Assembly (NCBI RefSeq): GCF_964204645.1
Contig: NC_134026.1
Span: forward strand, 22,540,150-22,604,149
From: Tubulanus polymorphus
Lineage: Eukaryota > Animalia > Nemertea
Reading direction: 5' to 3'
Length of the DNA stretch: 64,000 nt
The position numbers and the translations under genes were made by a program. Below are positions 2,575-26,600 of the stretch, one piece after another (the first letter of the stretch is position 1; each line of letters starts with the position of its first letter). The notes beneath the pieces were generated by a model. The model was not told the origin of the DNA. It was given only the letters and a program-made list of their open reading frames with translations, and did not search any database.

Positions 2575-5495
2575 ATGTCTGCATGGTTGAAAATTGGTGA
2601 CTTTTTTGTGCTTCCATGGTCCTGTTCTGGGTTAGAGTCTTCGATTGTTGTAGTAAGGGATCGGATGAGGATTTGTTTCGATATAGGCTACGCTCATCGG
2701 GAAACTGTCGAGGCTGAACATGTTTGCATAACGTATGTTGAAATAAATTCTGGAAACTATAAGCGGAGAGGGTTCAATAATGACTTATCTATTAAATGAA
2801 TTTAAACCTTCCTTCTACTGTATAGGTACATCTAATGTCTATTTCAACCTGACTTGAGAGCATTCCGGGTGGCCTAGCTCAGTCAGTCTTGGTAGTACTT
2901 ATGGAAGCCCTGAAACGACATTACGAATTACGTTTTACGAATTACATTTTAAGTTTTACAAATTACGAGTTACGTTTTACAAATTACGAGTTAGGTTAAC
3001 GATTTACCATATAAGCTCCCTGCATTTCGTATGTCGCGCGAGGTCAAGGTCTTATACAATTACGTTTTACGACTTACGTTTTCCATTGACTTATTGGCTA
3101 TTGCTTAAAAAGGTTTTTGGAAAAACACGGGCTTGCAATGAGTCGAATCATGACGAAGAATGAATCTGACTGAATTTATTTTGCATTTCGAAATATATAC
3201 ATGTATATTGTGAAATTGAGGGAGTTTCGTACGCATTTTTTATTACAAATAATAATAAGACCAAGGAAGTCAAAAAGTGACAATTTCAAATGATCAAAAG
3301 TATAGAGATTCAGCCTGCATACGCCCGGATTCATTAAATAATAAATTACAAACACTGACACTGTCCTGTTTGGCAAGGAAGGGCACAATGATTAAGACGA
3401 TACAAAATTGGAAATTATTCGGGGTTCATGGAAATAAAAAGAAATTGGACTCCATATCGGTGCAGATACAATTCTTCAATTGTAACAAATGATCATAACA
3501 AGTCTTAGCTTTTAATAATGAAAATATATATTTTTATTTGAAAGAAAAGCATTTGTCATCCATCATCGTTATTAGTTGAAGTATTCGGCAAAAAATTACA
3601 ATCGATTTCACCACAGTGCTGCCTTCTGCATGCTACCCAAAGTTTAATATTCACGACACGGAGAGTGCACCACAACCTTGACCTCTTGTGAAAAATTGAA
3701 CCGAAATGTAGTGGTAAATCATTGCCCAAAATAAGTCGTAAAACGTAACTCGTAAGACGTAATTCGTAAAACGTAATTCGTAATGTCGTTTCAGGGCTTC
3801 CATAGTCAGTCTTGGTAGTACATACCTGATAAAGGTCTTAATAGGACCAGAAAGGACTGGCAGTCGACCTAAATCATCATTTTTTCATCCATTTGAAACT
3901 GTATTGAAGGATATCCAAAAAGTCTTCACTGAAAGGGGTTAAATGAAGAGAAGTGACTCCATGATTTGAAAGTTTAACAATATGTTTCCATGCCTACGTA
4001 TCAAATTTCAGTTGGTAGGCATGGACACATATTGTTAAACTTTCTAATCAGGAGTCTCTTTTCTCTCAGGAACCCCCCTCAATGCAGATTTTTTGGATAT
4101 CCTTCAATACAGTTTCAAATGGATTAAAAAATGATGATTTAGGTCGACTGCCAATGCATTCTGGTCCTAATAAGACTTTTATCAGGTATGTACCACCAAA
4201 ACTGACTGAGCTAGGCCACTAGGAATGCTCTCAAGCCAGATTGAAATAGAGATTAGAAAGATATTTGTCTATTTTCGTTGTAGACATGGTCATATCGATC
4301 ATATAGCCGGTATTGCCCATCACACAGCTAAACGAGATTTGTATGGAATGTCGATGCCAACATATTACGCACCGAGTCATCTCGTTGATACTTTGAAAGA
4401 TGTCGGGAAAGTTTTTGGCAAGATGCAAGAGAGGTCTTCATCTATGAACAAGATGAATGTTCAAGGTATTGATTATGATGGAGAAGCAATACAGGTAGGC
4501 TATTAGACAATTGTATTTTCCCTGCTTAACAATATATCTAAGACATCTGGACCCAGTTCCACAGTTGTGAGTTAAGAGTTAACTCTGAGTTAAAGTTAGT
4601 TCATTTTCAATGTTTTAACCCAGGGTCAAATCTTAACTCGGAACTGTGGAACTGGACCCCGGACCCAGTTCCACAGTTGTGAGTTAAGAGTTAACTCTGA
4701 GTTAAAGTTAGTTCATTTTCAATGTTTTAACCCAGGGTCAAATCTTAACTCTGGAACTGTGGAACTGGACCCTGATGATAAGTTGAATTGAATAAAAAAA
4801 TGAAATGTTTTTCAAGACCGCGGACCTATTTTACTTCAATTAGATCATTCGTTGAATCATCTAAATCTTTCATCATCTTTTTCAGCTACCCTGGAATCGT
4901 AAATTAAAAGCCATTAAAACTGAGCATACGGTAAAAAGCCAAGGTTATATTATATATAAGGTCATTAGAACATTGAAACCCGCTTACATACATCTTAATC
5001 CACGTGAAATAGCAAGATTGCATAAAGAAGGACACGTAATACATGACATTATGGAAATTCCGGAAGTGGCTTACACAGGTGAGAACATCTATCTGATTGA
5101 ATCAATAACGAAATGAAATAAGATTCATGCAGGTGTGGCTTTGAATTGATTTTTCGCTTGTCGTTAACCTAGGGGATACTACTATCGCTGCCTTCCTGAA
5201 TCCATCTCAAAACCCGGATATCTTCAAAGTGAAACTGTTGATAACCGAAGCGACTTATATTGATTATATGGATAATGGAAGAAAAGTGAACATGGCTTAC
5301 GATCGTGGACATATGCATTTATGGCACATCGCAGAAAATGCCGAACTATTTAAGGATGTAGAAAACATTTTACTAGTACATTTCTCCGACAGATATGACA
5401 TTACATCTATACAGCAGTATGTTAATAGTTCAGTGCCACCATCATTGAGACATAAAGTTCATCTAGGACTTTGTAAAGGTGCTTTGCGCGAGTGA
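2575..5495 (+). CDS. Short-form tRNase Z (metallo-beta-lactamase fold), TM-type / plant TRZ1-like; exons 2575-2732, 4284-4494, 4886-5078, 5173-5495
   Basis: Phase-compatible exons give FDIG, THGHIDH (HxHxDH), TEHTVKSQGY, a short arm LKPAYIHLNPREIARLHKEG, AYTGDT, ITEAT, GHMH and HFSDRY, the tRNase Z motif series. Confidence 0.85.
2832..4256. mobile_element. ~500-bp foldback MITE, interrupted by a nested element, in intron 1 of the tRNase Z gene
   Basis: Long inverted arms CTAATGTCTATTTCAACCTGACTTGAGAGCATTCC...GGAATGCTCTCAAGCCAGATTGAAATAGAGATTAG; an uninterrupted copy lies at 38056-38560. Confidence 0.85.
2900..3804. mobile_element. Non-autonomous TIR element with TAYGG termini (IS3EU-like), nested in the foldback MITE
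   Basis: TIR TATGGAAGCCCTGAAACGACATTACGAATTACG / CGTAATTCGTAATGTCGTTTCAGGGCTTCCATA with 14-bp-period subterminal repeats (TTACGTTTTACGAA). TAY..RTA termini are described for IS3EU. Confidence 0.7.
4549..4772. mobile_element. Tandem dimer of a ~112-bp MITE
   Basis: Two head-to-tail copies with TIR CCAGTTCCACAGTT / AACTGTGGAACTGG; a related monomer lies at 47172-47264. Confidence 0.8.
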
Positions 5496-6166
5496 ACCTT
5501 ATTGTTACTTAAACTGTTTTTGTTGTTGATTATTGATAATATATTCGTTTATATAAAAAATGTTGGTATAGATTTACTTTCGTCTCCATGAGTCTTTTGA
5601 AGTGTCTCTATATCTTTATCCCTTGTTATCACAGATGAATATGTTTTTGTCCTTCGCTTGAAAAGAAAGTTAAGTTTCAGATGTGTTTTGAGTGGCAGGG
5701 CTTCTTTGACACACATTAGGCCTATGTATGTATACACCTGGTTGTCGTTTTTTTTTTTCTTTTTCATAGAATTTATCTTTGTTACGTAAATTTTAAAATG
5801 GTGTAAATCGACCAAACTTGGGTCTTTGGCGGGTGAGACTAACTCAATAGGCCAATTACCTATTTCTTAGCCATTCGATGCATAATTACGTGTAGATTTA
5901 AATCAGGAAAGAAAGTCGTGGATTAAAATCGTCCAGCTCCTTATGTTTATAGATTAACCAATAATAAATCATGGTGCGAAGTAAAAAAGGTGGAATTGAA
6001 TTAAATAGGAGCGCTGGCAAGTGAGGATAAAACTAGCAGTAGACTGGTTGCCGGTCGCTACCTTTATTGGACAGGCGAACAGTCTAAACTAGCAGTAGCG
6101 CCCTCTACTACATGTATAAATACATGTGAATGCGTGGAGCGTGTCGTGTTACATGCGGAAGTAAAC

Positions 6167-8046
6167 ATGAAGGCGCGTTGGTGGTTTGCTCGGTTTGCTA
6201 TTTTAGCGTTGTTTGTAGCAGCCGTAATTGCTCAAGAAGATGATGAAGATGACGATGGCCAAGTGCATAAAAAGTACGATGTCTCGGACAAAGTGATTGT
6301 ATCCGCAAGAGTAGAGGTAAGTAGGCCTAATAGACTAATTAGCGCGCAAATGTGTAGTGTTAAGTACCGAAATATAACATCTGATGAAATTACTAAAATT
6401 AGTAAATGCATTGTTAACAATTTTCTTCAGAGTTGCGACGGATGATTATTGAATAGCCTTCCTAAAGTGAAGGCTTTCATATTTGCTGATGTTCCTCGAT
6501 AGTATCCTTCTTATCATTTTTATTTTCTTTCCTTTCTATTGATATGATTTTTAGTTTTCACATTTTTCTATTCTATTCTATTCTTATCTACTATTATTAC
6601 CTCTCTATTGACCTGAAGTTTTTTTCAGGGGCCTATAGCATAGTTTGCCACACCCGAAATCTGAGCATATGTTTAGGAAAAGCGAACGATTTTGGGTGTG
6701 TCTTACATAAGCAAGAGGCCTCCGAAATCATTTTAGTTTCGCTGTTTAAGTGTTGGTTAAGATTTTCTATTTTACTACTTCTTTCAAAGCTTTCTTTTCT
6801 TTTGTCTATTTTTCTTTATATCTTTTTCTTTACATTTTCCTTGTATTTTTTGGTTTTATATTTTACCTGCATATACGATAGACTCTGCTTCCATTTGGGC
6901 ATGTATAACCCAGGACATTCTAAGTGACAATGGGTCATGATCACTGATTAATTAAGTAGAAAAACTTTCAATATTTGGTCTGGGGAATGTGTAAGGTAAT
7001 CGGCTCAGTGGCAAGCAGAATCTAGGGTAATGCTTCTTATGTTACAATTGGAATGCTTAGAATTCCCTTTTTTATATTCCAGAGCTGCGGAGGATGACGA
7101 CTGAATCGCCTTCCACAAGTGAAGGCATTCATTTATCAAGATATTGAACATTAGTATCCTTAGAATAGTAACCAGTCAAATTTGCTTTTTTCAAGTCAGG
7201 TGTTGGAAAAAGGAAAAATTACAGATAGTGGGTAATGGCATAGAATTCATCCTGCTCGCATGAATGAAAAGTCATTTACTCGACGTCATAAGCAATCACA
7301 TTATGATTAGGTCTATTAAGGAGCAAGATTGCACAGACACTCTGAAGTGATGTGGTTTGACAGATACAATGGAACCTCATTGTAATGACTGAGGACATAA
7401 TGATTTATCAGTTATAGCAAACATGGTTCGAATTTTGTCCCAGTCAGGGCAATTTTTTCATTTTCATACTAGATACCACACACTATCGGCTATGATGGAC
7501 ATATTTTATGGTCCCTGGGGTTCATTGTAATGTGGTTCCACTGTTTGATTAATTATCAAAAGAATGAAATTATATTGACCTGAACAAATTTTAGTTCAAA
7601 ATTGATTGATTTCCCATTCTTTTGAACAATTAACACCGTGCATGAAGCCCACTCATAATCTGAATCCGCATGTTTTGAAAATTGTATCCTACATTCATTT
7701 AACTCACGACTTTGACTGTAAATGGATTGCGGTAGTAAAACCCTTGACAATTTTTCTAGCGAAAATGTTCAGTTCAAAACAGTTCCAGGTCTCGATCCTG
7801 TCATCTTTTTCTTGAATAAAGCAGGGGATAAAGTTGAGGTACGTTTTTTTATTAAGTCGCTTTTGATATGTTGATTAGCCACCTCACTTAAAAGCGATCA
7901 TTAAATGTAAACTTGTTATTGCTGTATTTCAGCGAGTCCTGTTGGCCGAGAAGAAAAGAGAAGAGTGTAATAAAGCACTGACGGATAAAGGCTTTAAAAT
8001 GACCAAACCTGAAGTACCATATGAGGAAGATAAAGAAGAGCTTTAA
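6167..8046 (+). CDS. SELENOM: Selenoprotein M: exon1 6167-6316, alternative exon 2a 6431-6501 or 2b 7083-7153 (each with in-frame UGA = Sec), exon3 7760-7838, exon4 7933-8046
   Basis: Signal peptide MKARWWFARFAILALFVAAVIA, then ARVE-SCGGURLNRLPQVKAFIYQDIEHY-ENVQFKTVPGLDPVIFFLNKAGDKVE-RVLLAEKKREECNKALTDKGF...KEEL*. Matches the SelM pattern (CGGU-xLNRL-xxVKAF, PGxDP, C-terminal ER-retrieval tetrapeptide). SECIS present in the 3' UTR. Confidence 0.93.
6502..6510 (+). other. U12-type (minor spliceosome) 5' splice site after SelM exon 2a
   Basis: GTATCCTTC matches the GTATCCTT U12 donor consensus; phase 2. Confidence 0.85.
7154..7759 (+). other. U12-type GT-AG intron after SelM exon 2b
   Basis: Donor GTATCCTT at 7154. 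Branch CCCTTGAC at 7741-7748 with the branch A 12 nt before the AG at 7758-7759. TA+C rebuilds the conserved Tyr codon. Confidence 0.88.
7367..7543. mobile_element. Degenerate Tc1/mariner-type MITE in the SelM intron
   Basis: (TA)CAATGGAACCTCATT...AATGTGGTTCCACTG imperfect TIRs. Confidence 0.5.
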
Positions 8047-8789
8047 AATCATTTCGTTTTAGTTTTAGTGCTCAATCATCATTTATATGTATACGTATTC
8101 AATTTTTCTTACCTTTACGCATTGTATTTGAATCATATAACTAATTAATATACCTCAAACCCTATACTGTTTTCTACATCGCAAAAACTGCTCTACGATA
8201 TTGTAGAGATTTATGTGTTTAATTTAACCTTAAAATGATTGAAGTGTTAATTTAGTGCGTGTAACCAGATGAATTTTTTCCATTTTATACACGATAAAAC
8301 GTGCTTTTGCGATATACCAATACTTGATCTGGATCTTGCTGATACCTATAGTGAGGTTTCTTTTTTCTAAATGGATTGCTCATTATCGAATGAGGAATTT
8401 GTTGGTCACAACTCAAGATAGACTGGAAGTCAGCACGCGTACCGCAGTATGGGTTTGGTTTAACCCTAATATGCGGTACTCTAGCTTCAGTATATATCTC
8501 ATTCTACGTGTCAAACACTTAGATTGAGAGTGGTCTGAGATCCGTGCTCTATTGTGCTAAAAAATCGTTAGCAAGCACAGCTGGTTATTTTAGCTGGATC
8601 CATCACCGAATAAGATCGTGTACACTGACATGTATATCACAGCTGGTGCTGGAAGACAATGAAACTGTATGTCAGTAAATTCATATCCTGCAATATACTA
8701 ATTATACTATTTTTTAACACCTGTTATCATTCAACACGTCATCCTTAAATCAATACACATCTTAATACACATAAATTTGCAGTTAAACA

Positions 8790-8869
8790 GGCCAGTTTTA
8801 ACTTTAAACAAGAAGGTAATTCAACTAAATCAGTGGAGTTAACCCAGAAAAATTAAGTTAAAACTGGCC
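8790..8869. mobile_element. 80-bp MITE in the predicted SelM 3' UTR
   Basis: TIR GGCCAGTTTTAACTT / AAGTTAAAACTGGCC. Confidence 0.6.
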
Positions 8870-9132
8870 ATCATTTCAGCGACTAGGTACAAGTCAATAC
8901 TTGAACACTAATATGTTTATCATATAGAAATTGTTTGCTCACCAAACATGTATTTACTGATCAAGTCCGTATTCTTATCCCGGAATGTTTCTCTTCCATC
9001 ATCCTAGTGGAATGTGTTAGTGGTTATCTCAATTGTATGGTTCATTTATGATGGGTAGATGGTGGCATTGTTGAGAAAATCCTCTCCGACTTTAACTAAG
9101 TTTAATGCATCGTTGTCAATGATTAATTGAAA

Positions 9133-9200
9133 GCTGATTGTATGATTTTGTTCATCGAAATATTGCAAAATATGATGGACATTTGATGAAAATTAATAGC
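9133..9200 (+). promoter_or_regulatory. SECIS element (type 2) of SelM
   Basis: AUGA (9142-9145), 12 nt, AAA (9158-9160), mini-stem UAUU-GCAA-AAUA, then helix II UGUUCAUCG/UGAUGGACA and UGAU (9184-9187) completing the GA/GA quartet. Helix I GCU(G)AUUG/UAAUAGC. AATAAA downstream at 9410-9415. Confidence 0.85.
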
Positions 9201-9519
9201 AGCCGTTCAGTTATCTTTACAATAATGATCAATTGCTTTGTATTAGATCGCACGACTTGGATTTTACAAGCCATAAATTTATTTTTTTGGTTAATCATCT
9301 TATGATCTCACCATTTCCTGTACTCTATCTATCATCAAGTCTAACTACTATCAATGACTTTTGAAGTCATGGCAATTATGTTATATGCAAGAAGATTTTC
9401 GATTGAATGAATAAATTCTTATGAAAATTATATTTCAGTTATCTTGGTTAATCTTTACTTCCATTGTACTCCACAGTGCATTCCAAAAGTTACTTCAACA
9501 TTTGACTCCCCTTGATGGG

Positions 9520-10191
9520 GAGAACAAAAAGCTGGGTACCCTAATTCAATGTATTATAAGGAGATGTGTTATATGAGAATGCTGACAATTATCAAATATC
9601 ACGACCATGAATTGAAACTTTTATGCACATATAACCATGAGGACTGATGAGACTAAGATGGCTGCCGATTGACTGATCATGGCATTCTGATATGTTAAAG
9701 CATAGAACTACAATGGAAGGGAAGGCCTTTCGTTATAGTTCTATGGTTAAAGGTTCCTTCCCAATATATACCCATCACAAATTTCGATGAATAGTAATCT
9801 ACAGGTCTTAGAATTCAAGCCAAAAATTACCTTTTTGGACTCAAAAAAGGAGGTCACAGGACAATCGTCTTGTGTCAAGTAAATCCAAATGTGATGATGG
9901 GCCCGGGGGGGGGATACATATACATACGGAACATCAAGAAAATTGATCGGGCATCTTCAAAATTTCAAACATAGTCGGGCATCTTGCATCCGATTGGCGC
10001 AGTTTTGGGCTGTAGAAGTAGTATCTAGGGTAGATAACGTAGAAACCAAATCAAGACAATTCATTGAAGCGTCTTCAAAACTTCCCAAAATAACTGGATT
10101 GTTCCCTTTTTGTCCACCTGTCGTTCCATAGTCCATAGATGGACGAAAAATGAACGCAATAGCCTGCTGAGACTAGGCCAAAGTGGGCTAA
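9520..10191 (-). mobile_element. Degenerate Helentron/HINE-like (DINE-1-like) non-autonomous element
   Basis: Shares GAAGCGTCTTCAAAACTTCCCAAAATAACTGGAT and AACGCAATAGCC...AAGTGGGCTAA with the copies at 56.0-57.3 kb and 63.4-64.0 kb; left boundary approximate. Confidence 0.7.
9701..9745. mobile_element. 45-bp hairpin micro-MITE with a 7-bp TSD
   Basis: CATAGAACTA...TAGTTCTATG flanked by GTTAAAG at 9694-9700 and 9746-9752. Confidence 0.7.
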
Positions 10192-21562: not shown

Positions 21563-23630
21563 AAATCTCTGAAAAAGATATACTAGCGAGATGTCCGATG
21601 TTAGGTTTGAAATGGCAATAAAGAAATCAAATATTGAAATTTACTGTTTTTGATATGACATTACCCAGTTAAAAGGCACGGGTGGACATTGAAGTCAGTT
21701 TTTCTATCGATGGAAGTTTTCACCTTAGCACCAGAATCCGCCGAAAAACGTGGAGAAGCTATTCAAGCACCAAAACCGTTTGGAATCGTGCATGGAAAAA
21801 TCGAAAATCGTTCGGATGCCTTCTTGAAATGATCTATCTGTCTATCGTGCGTGCTCCAGTCTGGACGGACACTTTCGATTGAAAGATCTGTCAATGTATA
21901 CCCGAAATTCTCCGGGTAAAATGTCAGAAAATGCCCTGAAAGTTGTTACAGAAGATAATAAGTTAAAGAAAGATATTTTCTGTGATCAATTCTTCGCAGC
22001 GTAAAATTGAACAAGAAATTCACGTAGATGCTTAGAACACAGGAAAGAAACACCGGTGCCTGGCCTATATGGGATTCGAAACCAATTTATATCATGTTGA
22101 ATTGAATAATGTTGAATTGAATTGTTGAAGTCTTCGGGTGCCGCTAGGTAGTGCTGTATTCGTTCTACGCGATCGTACTTTCGATTTCTTGCTTAAATTC
22201 ACGGTTGCGAAATATATGAATTAGCATGTTAATGAGCTCTATATAAAATCTAATACATGTTGAATATTTTTGTAAAAGTTTATACGCTCTAAACTATCGA
22301 AATTTTGTGGATAATATCCAAAATGAATCAAATGACAGTTACTTCCGGGTTTTTGACAGTCTGGGTTTAATATAGTCAGTAACCTGTCTGTGGTTTAGTT
22401 TCACGATCGGATATTTTCACAAACCACAGTCAGGAATGGGAAGGTCATTTTTGTATGAAATCTTCGTCAGCCAATTTGACTGACGAGTAATTTGCCTGGC
22501 ATTTCATTGTCTCTTAAGATATCTGTCTAATTTTTGTTGTAATCGACGCACAACAGATTCGTAGTTTGTCTGATACCTATAACACCTCACCTGACGATCT
22601 TAATCCATGTGCAAATCGGCCGTAAAGTGAGAGTAAATTTCCGTCCAGTCAACAGCTGCCATTTCGAAAATTACTGGAGGTGCTGGCACCTGTGGACTGA
22701 GGCCAGGACAACAGCACAAACTAACGAAGCGAAACGACGAAATTAAAAAAAATTAAGAAATCAATACTTATTTACATTTTGCTTTTACCATAAATTTAAT
22801 AATTCATTATTTGTTATGGAAAACACGAAGATTTGAAATAAAAGTTGGAAAACCATCAAAAATAAAAATTGTCGTTTCGTCTTGAAAGTTTTATATAAAT
22901 CCTTGTAGGTCCCCTTGTCTTATCATGCAACATGTGCAATACAGAGAAATGGCGGCCAATGGCGAAATTTGTGGAGAAATTAATCAATTTCTCAAAATAA
23001 TGTTGATTAATCACTCGAAACATACATAAAATTGGATTATTTCGAAAGGTACCTGTGTTAGTTTGTGAATTAAGCCATTAATTGTGGACTGAAGTGAATA
23101 GAAAGTATATTTTTGAAGTGTTACTTTTTTCAACCGTGTTTTGGTCCTTGTCATCCCTAACGTTGGTATAAGCCCATCCGATTATAAAAAGCTTACCACC
23201 AACGATTAGGTAACTAACTAGGTTTAATACGTTCCGCATCTACAGAAATGTAATTTTCACATTTTCCACCAAGGCGCAACAATATCTATTTCTATTTGTC
23301 GAGTCCATTCCTCCACAAAACTAATTTTACATTCCAAATAGGTTTATAGAAAGTTAAATGGTCAATAAAAAATGGAAAATGTATAAGATGGCGGTAATAT
23401 TGCCATGCCACCCTAAAAATCCTTGCATATAAAGGCCTCTGCTAGGAAAAATGTTCGACCCCTATGTTGAAAGAATTATGTGATAAAGCTTTGCTCGCTA
23501 CAAATGCTTTGATAGAACATTTTCAAAACTAGTTCGTGAAATTAGTCACAGAAATCGAGACTTATCTAAATCTACAACTAATGCTAATATGCATTTTCTT
23601 CAAATTTCGAGAGTTTCAGTAGACGTCGCT

Positions 23631-26600
23631 ATGGACTTTCTAGCCGAGAACAACCCGTGCGGTCAGAATATACTGCGTCTCGTTTCAAGGGGAAACGCTA
23701 TTATTGCGGAATTGCTTCGTTTATCAGATTTTATCCCGCCTGTTTTTAAACTAGAAAACAAACAAGACATTCAAAAATATGGCGAGCTGATGGCAGACTT
23801 CAGCTATTTCCAAAGCGCTGAATATTTCGATAACAAAATCGATTCGAAGGCAGTGAGTTCAAAATTTCATACGTGTATGATCTCAATGATTGGAATATTC
23901 GTATAAATTTTGTGATCATTTTTGTTTTCAGGAGCTGCAAGATTTAGACGAAGAATTTCGTGAAAATCATATTGAAATTTTAACGCGGTTTTACCTGGCG
24001 TTTGAAAGTGTGCACAAATATGTGGTCGATTTGAATCACTACATCAGTGAATTAGACGAATGTGTCTATGTTCACCAAACCCTTGAATCTGTCCTGCTAA
24101 ACGAGGATGGCAAGCAACTACTGGTAAGATATGATAAGATCCGCTAATCTTTGCTTATCATCGATGAATTGTGACCATGAGGCTTAGATCCTATATTGCA
24201 TGTTCAGTCGCGGTGGCAAGATTCTGTTCCCTGGCTATGACTTGATGCTTTGATTTGTATGTCTGCAAAGAAGTCTGATCCTTGCTGAACAAATTATAAA
24301 TTTGTATAATACATTTCAGTGTGAAGGGCTTTATCTCTATGGAATTATGTTAATCCTTCTGGATCTTAAAATTGAGGGGCCTGTTCGAGAAAGAATGCTG
24401 GTTTCCTATCACAGATACAGGTGTGTTTTCGATATCTTCAGTTCCTTTGAAGACTTGGAAGTTTCATAAGATCTTCTTCCACTTCTGAATATTTCAAATA
24501 ATTCCAGCGCTCAAAATGCAGCCATCAATTCTAATATCGATGATGTCTGCAACTTGTTACGAAATACTAACTTTTCCAATACTCCTGGAACAAGAAGACC
24601 AGCCAGTTATCCTGAATCTTATTTTGGGTAAGTATCTGTTAGGAACTGTAATACCAAGATATCTTGCATACAGCAAATGATAATTTGATATTCATCATTT
24701 TATTGTAAAAGAGAGCTTCATATGCAGCTCACATATCAAATAATATAAAAATATAAAATGTGACGGGGCGTTATACAGGAGGTTGACTGTAATAGGATCA
24801 TCAAAATCGTAATACATTTCAAGGGCAGAATTCTAAATGAAAATGTCCACTTAATTACAGACGAATACCAATTGATAATGATTTCGTCAGCATGGTAATT
24901 GGTCGCCTTCGTTCCGACGATATCTACAATCAGATATCGGCTTATCCGATGCCGGAACACCGCAGCACAGCTTTAGCCAATCAGGCGGCTATGTTATACG
25001 TTTGCTTGTATTTTGCACCATCGATTCTACACAACCAACAAGCGATTATGAGGGAGATTGTTGATAAACACTTCCCTGATAATTGGGTGAGTAATTCAAT
25101 CCTGTATTCTTTTACTAGAGATAATTTTTGGAAAAGCATGTTATACCAATAATGATGAAAGATCCACTAATTTGAATGCAAAAGGAAAATTTTTAAAATC
25201 TTTAGATTGTCATTAATTTATTACGTTATTTCATAGAGTAAAAAGTGATGCTACACTTATTGTACAATTTGTACGTCATATTGCAGGTTATATCAATATA
25301 TATGGGTATAACAGTCAATCTGCTCGATGCCTGGACACCGTATAAAGCTGCTCTGACTGCTCTCAGTAACACACTGGATACAAATAACATTCGCCAGTTA
25401 GTAAGTGTCTACGTTGATAAACATTACTAACATTGTTGTATGGATATGCATTAAATCTTTATTGATACAAAATTGTAGTGACAGTTCTTAAAAAGGGCGT
25501 TTACCACCGAATAAAAAGGTTTGGACCCCTCCCTATGGATATGAAAGCTAGATATAGTCTTGATAATAATACATTCATCCATGGAGCATACATCATAAAA
25601 TATGAGTTTTTAGTTAATCAGCACATTTATATCATATTTTTCTTTCAATACCAAAACTGTTTCATTATCAACAGGCAACAAGGTTTGCTGGTAAGGTACA
25701 GAAATTGATGCCCGCTGTTCAGAAATACCTGAAAGAAGGTGTTTTAGAGGATGAGTTTGTATTGGATAACGTACCAAAACTCATCAATGTCCTACGTGAG
25801 GCGAATGTTACCATACGCTGGATGATGTTACATACATCAATCCTTAGTTCGAGTATGTCTGCTTTTCATAGAATCATTCGATCAATTTTGCGAAATGTTT
25901 GACGCTGGAATTGTTTCTTATACTGATTGAATTTGTTTTCAAAGGTGCCGAAGCGAACAAGCGCTGTCGTCAGATAAGAGATCAAGTTATCGCAGACAGC
26001 AGATACAGTCCATTGGTGGTATTCAATTTACTCCTGAATACAGGACAGTTCGAATTCAAACTGAAAGAGGTAAAATTTATTGTTTTTGTCCCGTCAATTT
26101 TAGTAAAGAGTTTATGCCGAATAGCACTCGATCTTACCTTTACTGTAGTTATTCAAACGTATGTTGCTTGAGAAAAAGGAGAACTGGGAGAAATATAAAA
26201 AGGAAGGCAGTGAGAGAATGCAAGAGCTCAGTGAAGTGTTCTCCGGGACAAAACCTCTTACGAGAGTTGAGAAAAATGGTATGTAATTTGAGTTAAATCT
26301 ATTTTTAACTGACTTAAGGTTAAAGCTCCAGTGGACTATTGCATTCACTTTTCGTCTGTCTGTTTGGTTGTCTGTTGTCAGATTGTCAAGCATTTCATCA
26401 AGTGGCCATGGTGTCCCTGGATCCCTAGTTGTTATCTGGAGTTTGCTATCAGTTTTATTTGTTAATTTCTAGATAATCTGCAAGCATGGTTTGGTGATAT
26501 GAATAAACAAATTGATTCCCTTGCGTATGATGATTCAACTTCTGTGGGCAGGAAGATTGTTCAGCTTATTCAAGCTTTAGAAGGGGTTTGTTTCATTTTG

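Follow-up and report, generated by a model that had tools for sequence, protein, structure and literature searches.

A predicted mutually exclusive pair of Cys-x-x-Sec exons ahead of a U12-type intron in a nemertean selenoprotein M gene

The closest described relatives of the arrangement reported here are the genes of the JNK kinases. In JNK2/MAPK9 and its paralogues, exons 6a and 6b lie around a U2-U12 hybrid intron which, in the account given by Chang 2007 (PMC1874599), cannot be properly spliced, and the same account proposes that the JNK2 exon pair arose by duplication of one exon together with part of its flanking introns. Such pairs are rare, since in the figures given by Hatje 2017 (PMC5740500) only 5 of 629 human clusters of mutually exclusive exons (MXE) show U2/U12 splice-site incompatibility, the same lock that is proposed below. 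A second precedent concerns the gene family itself. The entries of Olthof 2019 (PMC6717393) place Selenom/SELENOM among the minor-intron genes of mouse and human, with the 5' splice sites GTAGTATCCTTT and CTAGTATCCTTC and with PWM scores for human and mouse of 89-91 (5'ss) and 74-84 (BPS). No link between SelM/SELENOM and mutually exclusive exons or exon duplication was found in the literature covered; full-text searches did not find SELENOM alongside either 'mutually exclusive' or 'U12', and a term search of a 2026 review of selenoprotein genetics returned no such SelM exon pair.

The DNA analysed here is a window of 64 kb from Tubulanus polymorphus that holds a gene for selenoprotein M (SelM) on its + strand, the strand of all features given below. 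The reading that we favour, as the probable one though with a good deal of room for doubt, is that the Cys-x-x-Sec exon of this gene has been duplicated in tandem before an old U12-type intron, that the two copies (exons 2a and 2b) are predicted to be mutually exclusive, and that the mRNA seen is the one with exon 2b. The new element is that this exon, which lies upstream of the SelM U12 intron, is present as a tandem duplicate; the intron itself is already known. The original prediction of a JNK-like layout agrees with the description in Chang 2007 (PMC1874599): two homologous exons stand in tandem, with a U2-type intron upstream, a U12-type intron downstream and a hybrid interval between them, and the origin proposed there for the JNK2 pair would fit the SelM gene as well. 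According to the same source the default in JNK2 is the downstream copy, and the downstream copy is likewise the form seen for SelM. The two systems differ in that the JNK proteins are kinases and SelM is an unrelated small ER redox selenoprotein, in that the exon swapped in SelM is the one with the active site and its Sec (UGA) codon, and in that the upstream copy of JNK has a proven (neuronal) use as described there, whereas use of the upstream SelM copy is predicted.

The coding part of exon 1 (6167..6316) starts with the ATG at 6167 and comprises 50 codons, the translation of which has a hydrophobic N-terminus that was read by eye as a putative signal peptide. The following intron (6317..6430, 114 nt) is predicted to be U2-type, with the donor GAG/GTAAGT, and leads to exon 2a (6431..6501, 71 nt), which encodes SCDGULLNSLPKVKAFIFADVPR and the TA of a split Tyr codon. 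Exon 2b (7083..7153) is also 71 nt long and encodes SCGGURLNRLPQVKAFIYQDIEH, again followed by TA. Between exon 2b and exon 3 lies a U12-type GT-AG intron of 606 nt (7154..7759, AG at 7758-7759). The first letter of exon 3 (7760..7838, 79 nt) is the C that completes the Tyr codon; 26 codons and the donor GAG/GTACGT follow. The coding part of exon 4 (7933..8046) consists of 37 codons ending in KEEL, read by eye as a candidate ER-retention motif, and a TAA stop, behind which the 3' UTR extends from 8047 to 9341 as in the RNA contig. Whether assembled with 2a or with 2b, the four-exon model runs to codon 138, with the TGA of codon 55 as its only internal stop. The sequence features named in the original prediction were all located at their positions, and its translations of the two exons, SCDGU... 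and SCGGU... with TGA as codon 5 of each, were reproduced.

Support from RNA comes from a single spliced contig of 1737 nt (run X4), whose joints 6316>7083, 7153>7760 and 7838>7933 correspond to the exon order 1 > 2b > 3 > 4. The contig starts at 6139, its first piece (6139-6314/6316) is joined to 7083, and its last piece spans 7931-9341. The type of run X4 is unrecorded, and we call it RNA because this contig is spliced; runs X2 and X3 gave only unspliced, DNA-like pieces of 151 nt, and run X1, which matches the entire stretch almost identically, may be the source of the window. Exon 2b is therefore the copy carried by the mRNA seen, and the intron between exons 2b and 3 is removed as had been predicted. 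The contigs (not reads) of four runs from one study, matched at 95% likeness and for X4 also at 80%, contained no piece in which exon 2a is spliced to anything or stands together with 2b. During contig building, alternative paths of equal length may be collapsed into one, so that the contigs cannot argue against a use of exon 2a.

Assignment of the gene to the SelM family is borne out by the profile PF08806 (Sep15_SelM) and by matches to two known structures. Exon 2b scores 30.4 bits against the profile, above the cutoff of 26, while exon 2a scores 20 bits (E 7e-4), below it, and exon 3 scores 17.5 bits over profile positions 29-54; exons 2b/2a and exon 3 thus match adjoining, successive parts of PF08806. 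Against mouse SelM (2a2p), exons 2b and 2a score 28.3 and 16.8 bits, both at residues 21-42, and exon 3 scores 13.4 bits against Sep15 (2a4h). The CxxU centre reads CDGU in exon 2a and CGGU in exon 2b. By its lower scores against both Pfam and 2a2p, exon 2a has diverged further, and exon 2b is the family-typical copy.

A selenoprotein gene should be accompanied by a SECIS element, and the 3' UTR offers a weak candidate found by hand at 9130..9207, within the transcribed part. Its AUGA (9142-9145) faces a UGAU (9184-9187), and it has an 8-bp helix, an unpaired AAA (9158-9160) and a mini-stem; the predicted fold has an MFE of -16.2 with a z of -1.68, and a fold as good was reached by 14 of 200 shuffles. 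Rfam gave no match to a SECIS or to any other family, either in 5500-10000 at E up to 1 or across the whole window at the gathering score, and a strict scripted filter returned nothing, the candidate at 9142 having come from a looser listing. The window contains no snRNA genes by Rfam at the gathering score.

Which spliceosome would recognize the sites around the two exons? Each exon is followed directly by GTATCCTT, at 6502-6509 behind exon 2a and at 7154-7161 behind exon 2b, the latter being the donor used in the RNA contig. These are the only two matches in the window, both on the + strand. Their count is within chance (2.07 expected; at least 2 in 61 of 100 shuffles), and what lies beyond chance is not the count but the placement, right after two homologous 71-nt exons in identical phase. 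Both donors match GTATCCTTT, the U12 donor consensus, at 8 of 9 positions, and the U1 consensus at 3 of 9; the same U1 string is matched by the donor of exon 1 at 8 and by that of exon 3 at 7 of 9 positions. The U12 string agrees with the SELENOM entries of Olthof 2019. The exon positions -2/-1 before both GTATCCTT donors are TA, not AG, and the validated U12 GT-AG introns described in Kwon 2023 have no AG at -2/-1. Donors of the AT-AC type, ATATCCTT, have 5 matches in the window against 3.59 expected.

The acceptors of the alternative exons, TTTTCTTCAG ending at 6430 (2a) and TTTTTTATATTCCAG ending at 7082 (2b), are of the pyrimidine-tract/CAG kind, and the claim that both exons combine U12-type donors with U2-looking acceptors is upheld. 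Before exon 3, the motif CCCTTGAC (7741-7748) matches 7 of 8 positions of TCCTTRAY, the U12 branch-site consensus, and its A, at 7747, lies 12 nt before the terminal G of the intron (7759); matches of at least 7/8 at 9-20 nt precede 53 of the 3370 + strand AG sites in the window. The best U12 branch match before exon 2b reaches 5/8, and before exon 2a TTGTTAAC reaches 6/8 at 13 nt. A branch site before exon 3 and none before exon 2b, as anticipated, is thus what the sequence contains. The acceptor of exon 3, AATTTTTCTAG, has a 7-nt pyrimidine run between branch motif and AG, and the branch motif fits the loose U2 branch consensus as well. For this reason the original prediction that skipping of both exons is barred by a U12-type acceptor holds for the branch site at exon 3, while exclusion of a double skip by the major spliceosome does not follow from the sequence. 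The distance of 12 nt lies inside the optimum of 11-13 nt between branch-site A and AG that is stated in Turunen 2013.

One could read these donors as ordinary major-spliceosome sites whose U12 resemblance is fortuitous, as the unremarkable number of GTATCCTT matches and the exon 3 acceptor, with its short T-run and U2-compatible branch motif, would allow. We judge this reading to be already very unlikely, with the U1 match of 3/9, the TA at -2/-1 and the branch distance all pointing the other way, together with two further observations from outside the window. The orthologous human/mouse intron is listed as minor with the PWM scores given above (PMC6717393), and the same signals are carried by a second SelM gene (L001), a vertebrate-like contig.

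Contig L001 was found by a metagenome pattern scan that returned two loci, the other of which (L002) was rejected as a bacterial chance match. It encodes VKAFVVQDIPL followed by TA and GTATCCTT, and then has TCCTTGAC 15 nt before an AG; the exon is present in single copy, and GTATCCTT occurs once in the 3152 nt. Following VKAF..D.., its intron interrupts the Tyr codon that is also interrupted in the window gene. Vertebrate SELENOM, of the same family, has TA before a GTATCCTT GT-AG U12 donor and a TCCTTRAC-like branch site in the entries of Olthof 2019 (PMC6717393), and from the TA before the donor we infer that the human and mouse intron lies in the same codon. Given that human and mouse SELENOM have the minor intron and that L001 has the same donor behind a single exon, the U12 intron of SelM is, by these comparisons, ancestral. 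Vertebrate SELENOM, as listed there, and L001 have one exon ahead of the intron, whereas the window gene has two. In L001, moreover, the Sec codon sits on a separate upstream exon, whereas the window gene has Sec and the VKAF helix on one exon. The proposal of an independent JNK-like instance has its one new element in the exon duplication, and is overstated where it treats the U12 intron as a special device of this gene, since the intron is listed for human and mouse SELENOM.

These features suggest how the choice between the exons could be made. We propose that an ancestral single exon was duplicated together with part of its flanks and that each copy kept its U2-type acceptor and U12-type donor. 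The U2 donor of exon 1 could then pair with the acceptor of either 2a or 2b. The donor of 2a, however, would be unable to pair with the U2-type acceptor of 2b and would pair only with the U12-type acceptor at 7759, which would remove 2b within a U12 intron of 1258 nt (6502-7759). The rationale for predicting that the hybrid interval (6502..7082, 581 nt, U12-type donor and U2-type acceptor) is unspliceable is the principle described in Chang 2007 (PMC1874599) combined with the lack of a U12 branch site before 7083. Exon 2b would be the likely default copy and 2a a restricted alternative. As to mutual exclusivity itself, the JNK-like hybrid layout that was predicted is present, and exclusive use in RNA did not emerge, with only 2b spliced and no RNA piece carrying 2a.

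The reading frame would act as a second lock beside splice-site incompatibility, and unlike in JNK this lock is added by the 71-nt length of the exons. A transcript with both 2a and 2b would meet a TAA at codon 74, where the two exons join, and one with neither would meet a TAA at codon 70, so that the frame also enforces exclusivity, a point absent from the original prediction. Exclusivity might then be mainly a matter of reading frame and mRNA decay, transcripts with both exons or neither being made and subsequently degraded. This has in its favour the two premature TAA codons and the report in Kwon 2023 of a small number of U12-type sites that both machineries splice, by which U2/U12 incompatibility is not absolute. 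We nevertheless regard it as improbable, given that the 2a donor matches U1 at only 3/9 and the best U12 branch before 2b only at 5/8, so that 6502-7082 offers neither machinery two sites of its own type, and that the equivalent JNK intron is described as not properly spliceable in Chang 2007 (PMC1874599); the frame lock and the spliceosome lock are, in any case, compatible with each other.

A different control, of the kind found in Dscam or ATE1, would be exon choice through competing intronic RNA pairings of docking and selector sites. In favour of such pairing, the stretch 6953-6974 shows partial complementarity to two splice-site regions, the 2b donor at 7141-7162 (73%) and the exon 3 acceptor at 7744-7758 (87% over 15 nt). 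When all five splice-site regions were set against intron windows, however, none gave a best duplex energy outside the spread of its 40 shuffles; the 2b donor reached -14.9, where the shuffles averaged -13.1 (sd 1.9), and the exon 3 acceptor reached -13.8, where they averaged -14.3. The sequence is, moreover, AT-rich. With energies no better than those of shuffled sequence, we rejected docking/selector pairing, which would be the least credible of the explanations considered, and retain the spliceosome lock as the preferred mechanism.

A central question is whether exon 2a is used at all. The two exons are identical at 50 of 71 nt and at 14 of 23 residues, and over 22 codons dS is 0.97, dN 0.31 and dN/dS 0.32. 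Their flanks are unalignable beyond TAGTATCCTT; compared without gaps, the flanks agree at 22 of 60 positions on the upstream side and at 18 of 60 on the downstream side, and the donors at 8 of 8. A dS of about 1 together with unalignable flanks points to an old duplication. A third copy was looked for in the window and rejected; there are two copies only. Exon 2a retains five features, namely its AG, the full U12 octamer, TGA, Cys and an open frame. When 21 random substitutions were placed in the 81-nt unit under a uniform model, only 0.17% and 0.24% of 20,000 simulations each kept all five, figures to be read with the fact that the features were picked after seeing the data. Conservation of amino acids between the copies is not significant on its own (P = 0.11 for at least 14 identical), and the selection argument on 2a concerns 23 codons only.

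The main competitor of the preferred reading takes exon 2a for a duplicate that goes unused or is decaying, in a gene that constitutively makes the 2b form, with no alternative splicing. We consider this unlikely, yet it is the alternative to be taken most seriously. In its favour, the sole spliced RNA piece carries 2b, exon 2a is the weaker copy against both the family profile and mouse SelM, and AG, GT, TGA and open frame alone survive 5-6% of the neutral simulations, no extreme figure. Against it stand the rare joint retention of the complete set of features, the age of the pair, over which a copy without function should have decayed, and the presumed collapse of equal-length paths, which would leave the contigs mute on 2a. 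The DVP-x-Y ending of exon 2a, furthermore, is found in a natural protein, P0003, a two-domain Cys-type SelM-like protein. This protein was one of two returned by a full HMMER search at E up to 0.001, neither of which has a 2a-type segment; the other, P0004, was rejected as a spurious repeat protein. Word-indexed protein searches with exon 4, exon 2b and the read-through from exon 1 through the intron into 2a gave no hits. Taken together, the pattern of retained features suggests that exon 2a is probably a used alternative exon, though its use may be rare or nil.

If 2a is used, a single selenoprotein gene would offer two versions of its Cys-x-x-Sec centre, with a rare, easily probed splicing lock deciding between them. 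The 2a form would be a SelM that has CDGU where the 2b form has CGGU, differs in the helix behind it and is translated by means of the same candidate SECIS. In thioredoxin-fold proteins, the two residues between Cys and Sec tune redox properties. A fuller reading, for and against which we see the case as evenly balanced, is that one gene with one SECIS would yield two SelM enzymes, with CDGU or CGGU and a changed active-site helix, one per transcript by a major/minor-spliceosome lock; such a gene would hold the first pair of mutually exclusive exons to exchange a Sec-coding active site, and would mean that the JNK switch had been invented again, independently and long ago, in a redox protein. 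The further suggestion that minor-spliceosome activity is coupled to UGA recoding found no support in the data. Since the mechanism was known before, as was the SelM minor intron, the locus opens no long-standing question. It illustrates a general rule, namely that a duplicated exon ahead of a conserved U12 intron automatically becomes a mutually exclusive pair. For annotation, the in-frame TGA and the U12 donor mean that gene finders will miss this SelM gene, and certainly its second isoform.

The selenoprotein M (SelM) gene comprises four exons on the forward strand, as read from the sequence between 5000 and 9500 with script-checked boundaries. Exon 1 runs from its ATG at 6167 to 6316 and ends at the donor GAG|GTAAGT, exon 3 (7760–7838) ends at GAG|GTACGT, and exon 4 (7933–8046) encodes a C-terminal ...KEEL followed by TAA. 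Between exons 1 and 3 lie two 71-nt versions of exon 2, 2a (6431–6501; SCDGULLNSLPKVKAFIFADVPR) and 2b (7083–7153; SCGGURLNRLPQVKAFIYQDIEH), each with TGA as its fifth codon and each ending in TA, such that the first base of exon 3, C, completes a split Tyr codon. With either copy the model gives 137 codons and a single TGA at codon 55. Against the Pfam profile PF08806 (Sep15_SelM), 2b scores 30.4 bits (cutoff 26), 2a 20 bits and exon 3 17.5 bits, the exon 2 versions and exon 3 covering adjoining parts of the profile. Residues 21–42 of mouse selenoprotein M (PDB 2a2p) are aligned by 2b (28.3 bits) and by 2a (16.8 bits), and exon 3 aligns weakly with Sep15 (2a4h). The 64 kb window holds no third copy of exon 2, since tblastn with both peptides returned only 2a and 2b.

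Four sequencing runs of one study, none on record as RNA, were compared with the window as contigs. In one of them, X4, a 1737-nt contig joins 6316 to 7083, 7153 to 7760 and 7838 to 7933 and extends to 9341; X4 is treated here as RNA because this contig is spliced. The contig shows the 2b isoform in RNA and the removal of 7154–7759 exactly at the predicted U12-type (minor spliceosome) sites, as had been proposed for the intron between 2b and exon 3. Run X1 matches the full length of the window identically and may have supplied its assembly, and runs X2 and X3 gave only unspliced pieces of 151 nt. Exon 2a appears in spliced form in none of the contigs of the four runs. Contig building may collapse equal-length alternative paths between common flanks, and because the data are contigs this absence says nothing about 2a use. 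Within the 2a–2b interval, a separate 218-nt X4 contig (6668–6884, depth 10.9) may derive from precursor RNA before splicing, from a repeat or from a different transcript. Inside the U12 intron, X4 contigs of 412 and 164 nt match about 45–55 nt of 7451–7515 with 7–8 differences (80% likeness), probably a dispersed repeat.

The window contains two matches to GTATCCTT, starting at 6502 and 7154. That number equals the chance expectation (2.07); the placement does not look like chance, because each match adjoins the 3' end of an exon copy and the phase is the same in both. Scored against consensus strings, the 2a and 2b donors agree with the U12 type at 8/9 positions and with the U1 (major spliceosome) type at 3/9; for exons 1 and 3, agreement of the donor with the U1 type is 8/9 and 7/9, respectively. 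TA precedes both U12-type donors, and Kwon et al. 2023 state that AG never stands directly before the donor in validated U12 GT-AG introns. Upstream of exon 3, CCCTTGAC (7741–7748) agrees with TCCTTRAY at 7/8 positions, and 12 nt separate its A from the AG, the optimal distance being 11–13 nt in Turunen et al. 2013; a comparable motif at 9–20 nt accompanies 53 of the 3370 AG sites in the window. The best match ahead of exon 2b reaches 5/8. The original prediction was thus correct in its description of the splice signals. Ahead of exon 2a, TTGTTAAC matches at 6/8, 13 nt from the AG, and the sole donor on its 5' side belongs to exon 1 and is of the U2 type. The acceptor regions of 2a (6411–6430; TTGTTAAC AATTTTCTTCAG) and exon 3 (7741–7759; CCCTTGAC AATTTTTCTAG) are alike, which is unexpected under a simple tandem-duplication history and could reflect chance similarity between AT-rich acceptors.

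How would a transcript be limited to one copy? The layout is that of JNK2 exons 6a/6b, with a U2-type intron upstream and a U12-type intron downstream, and the interval between the SelM copies likewise combines a U12 5' splice site with a U2 branch site and 3' splice site. Chang et al. 2007 report that the JNK2 hybrid intron cannot be properly spliced and show the downstream exon to be the default form; they propose that the pair arose by duplication of one exon and part of its flanking introns. In SelM, the exon 1 donor would join to the acceptor of either 2a or 2b; the only acceptor usable by the 2a donor would be 7759, removing 6502–7759, and the 2b donor uses the same acceptor, as seen in RNA. 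Steric hindrance is ruled out as the cause of exclusivity because the spacing is 581 nt. Competing RNA pairings were rejected, as inverted repeats are no better than shuffles; an intronic segment at 6953–6974 is partly complementary to the 2b donor region (7141–7162) and the exon 3 branch and acceptor region (7744–7758), with duplex energies no better than those of shuffles. The reading frame constitutes a second lock, absent from the original prediction, such that joining 2a to 2b puts TAA at codon 74, where the two exons meet, and omission of both copies leads to TAA at codon 70. Because the exon 3 branch motif also fits a loose U2 consensus, the sequence does not prevent the major spliceosome from skipping both copies; the product would be out of frame. 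The 114-nt intron between exons 1 and 2a (6317–6430) spans 38 codons that are all open in the exon frame (ORF 6005–6445), and its retention would keep the frame into 2a. The lock mechanism is known but rare, because 5 of 629 human clusters of mutually exclusive exons show U2/U12 incompatibility in Hatje et al. 2017.

Selenom/SELENOM is listed as a minor-intron gene in mouse and human (Olthof et al. 2019, supplementary file 1), with 5' splice sites GTAGTATCCTTT and CTAGTATCCTTC, branch-point sequences ACCTCTTTAACA and CGCTCCTTAACA, and lengths of 321 and 371 nt, respectively. The TA before the donor suggests that this intron lies at the same codon. A pattern scan of metagenome contigs yielded two loci: L002, rejected as a bacterial chance match, and L001, a SelM gene of vertebrate-like type. 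One exon of L001 ends VKAFVVQDIPL plus TA and is followed by GTATCCTT and then by TCCTTGAC 15 nt before the AG, and the next exon starts with the C that completes Tyr; a single exon copy precedes the U12-type intron. L001 differs in that its Sec-coding part (TCGGU QLNRLRE; 2618–2583, minus strand) is an exon of its own with an extra intron before the VKAF... exon, so that exon 2 of the window is the counterpart of two exons. Because the SELENOM listing and L001 share its signals, the U12 intron at the split Tyr codon is, by sequence comparison, an ancestral feature of the SelM family. What is new here is the tandem duplication of the Sec exon, the SelM U12 intron itself being already known. 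A full-text search, with supplements unindexed, returned no literature tying SelM to U12 or mutually exclusive exons, and no description of the exon pair appeared in the limited, supplement-free collection searched.

The two copies are identical at 50/71 nt and 14/23 residues, and the alignable part of their surroundings is the 10 nt TAGTATCCTT; compared without gaps, the flanks agree at 22/60 positions upstream and 18/60 downstream, with 8/8 at the donor. Nei-Gojobori estimates (dS 0.97, dN 0.31, ratio 0.32), of low power at 22 codons, point to an old duplication under constraint. Neutral simulations, 20,000 from each copy, applied 21 random substitutions to the 81-nt unit. The full set of AG, GTATCCTT, TGA, Cys and an open frame survived in 0.17% and 0.24% of them; AG, GT, TGA and an open frame alone did so in 5–6%, and at least 14 identical residues were left in 11%. 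Under this crude model, with scored features picked after the fact, the result favours retention of both copies as splice-competent, Sec-coding exons. Exon 2b is the family-typical copy; the 2a ending ...DVP-x-Y also occurs in a natural SelM-like protein, P0003, from a full HMMER search. P0003 (207 aa) has a signal-like N-terminus, two tandem SelM-like domains in which Cys replaces Sec (CSAC, CSGC) and a C-terminal KAEL, which represents another route to two SelM centres per gene product.

The exon-pair architecture and the ancestral U12 intron are nearly certain, use of 2a is fairly likely, and a predicted 2a/2b switch is probable. The combined account, a Sec exon tandem-duplicated before an old U12 intron, with predicted mutually exclusive copies and an mRNA carrying 2b, is held with moderate confidence. 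The original observation is confirmed, and its interpretation, exclusivity hard-wired by U2/U12 incompatibility and coupled to UGA recoding, is supported in part only: nothing in the data ties the minor intron mechanistically to recoding, and vertebrate SelM has the same intron without the exon pair.

Rfam gave no SECIS match. A SECIS-like stem found by hand at 9130–9207, within the transcribed 3' UTR, places AUGA (9142–9145) opposite UGAU (9184–9187) with an unpaired AAA and a mini-stem; its fold is unexceptional (z −1.68; 14/200 shuffles fold as well), and it is considered a candidate SECIS. The SelM promoter probably has its TATA box at 6113–6120, where TATAAATA stands about 20–25 nt ahead of position 6139, at which the RNA contig begins. 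Upstream on the same strand (+), another gene has its final coding exon at 5175–5495; this exon closes with TGA (5493–5495) about 650 nt before the SelM transcript start and matched no Pfam family at E ≤ 0.01. The WASH-complex protein strumpellin is encoded by a further gene, whose first coding exon is the open frame at 23487–23906 (+); this frame matches PF10266, the strumpellin profile, over its 53 N-terminal positions (55 bits, E 4e-15).
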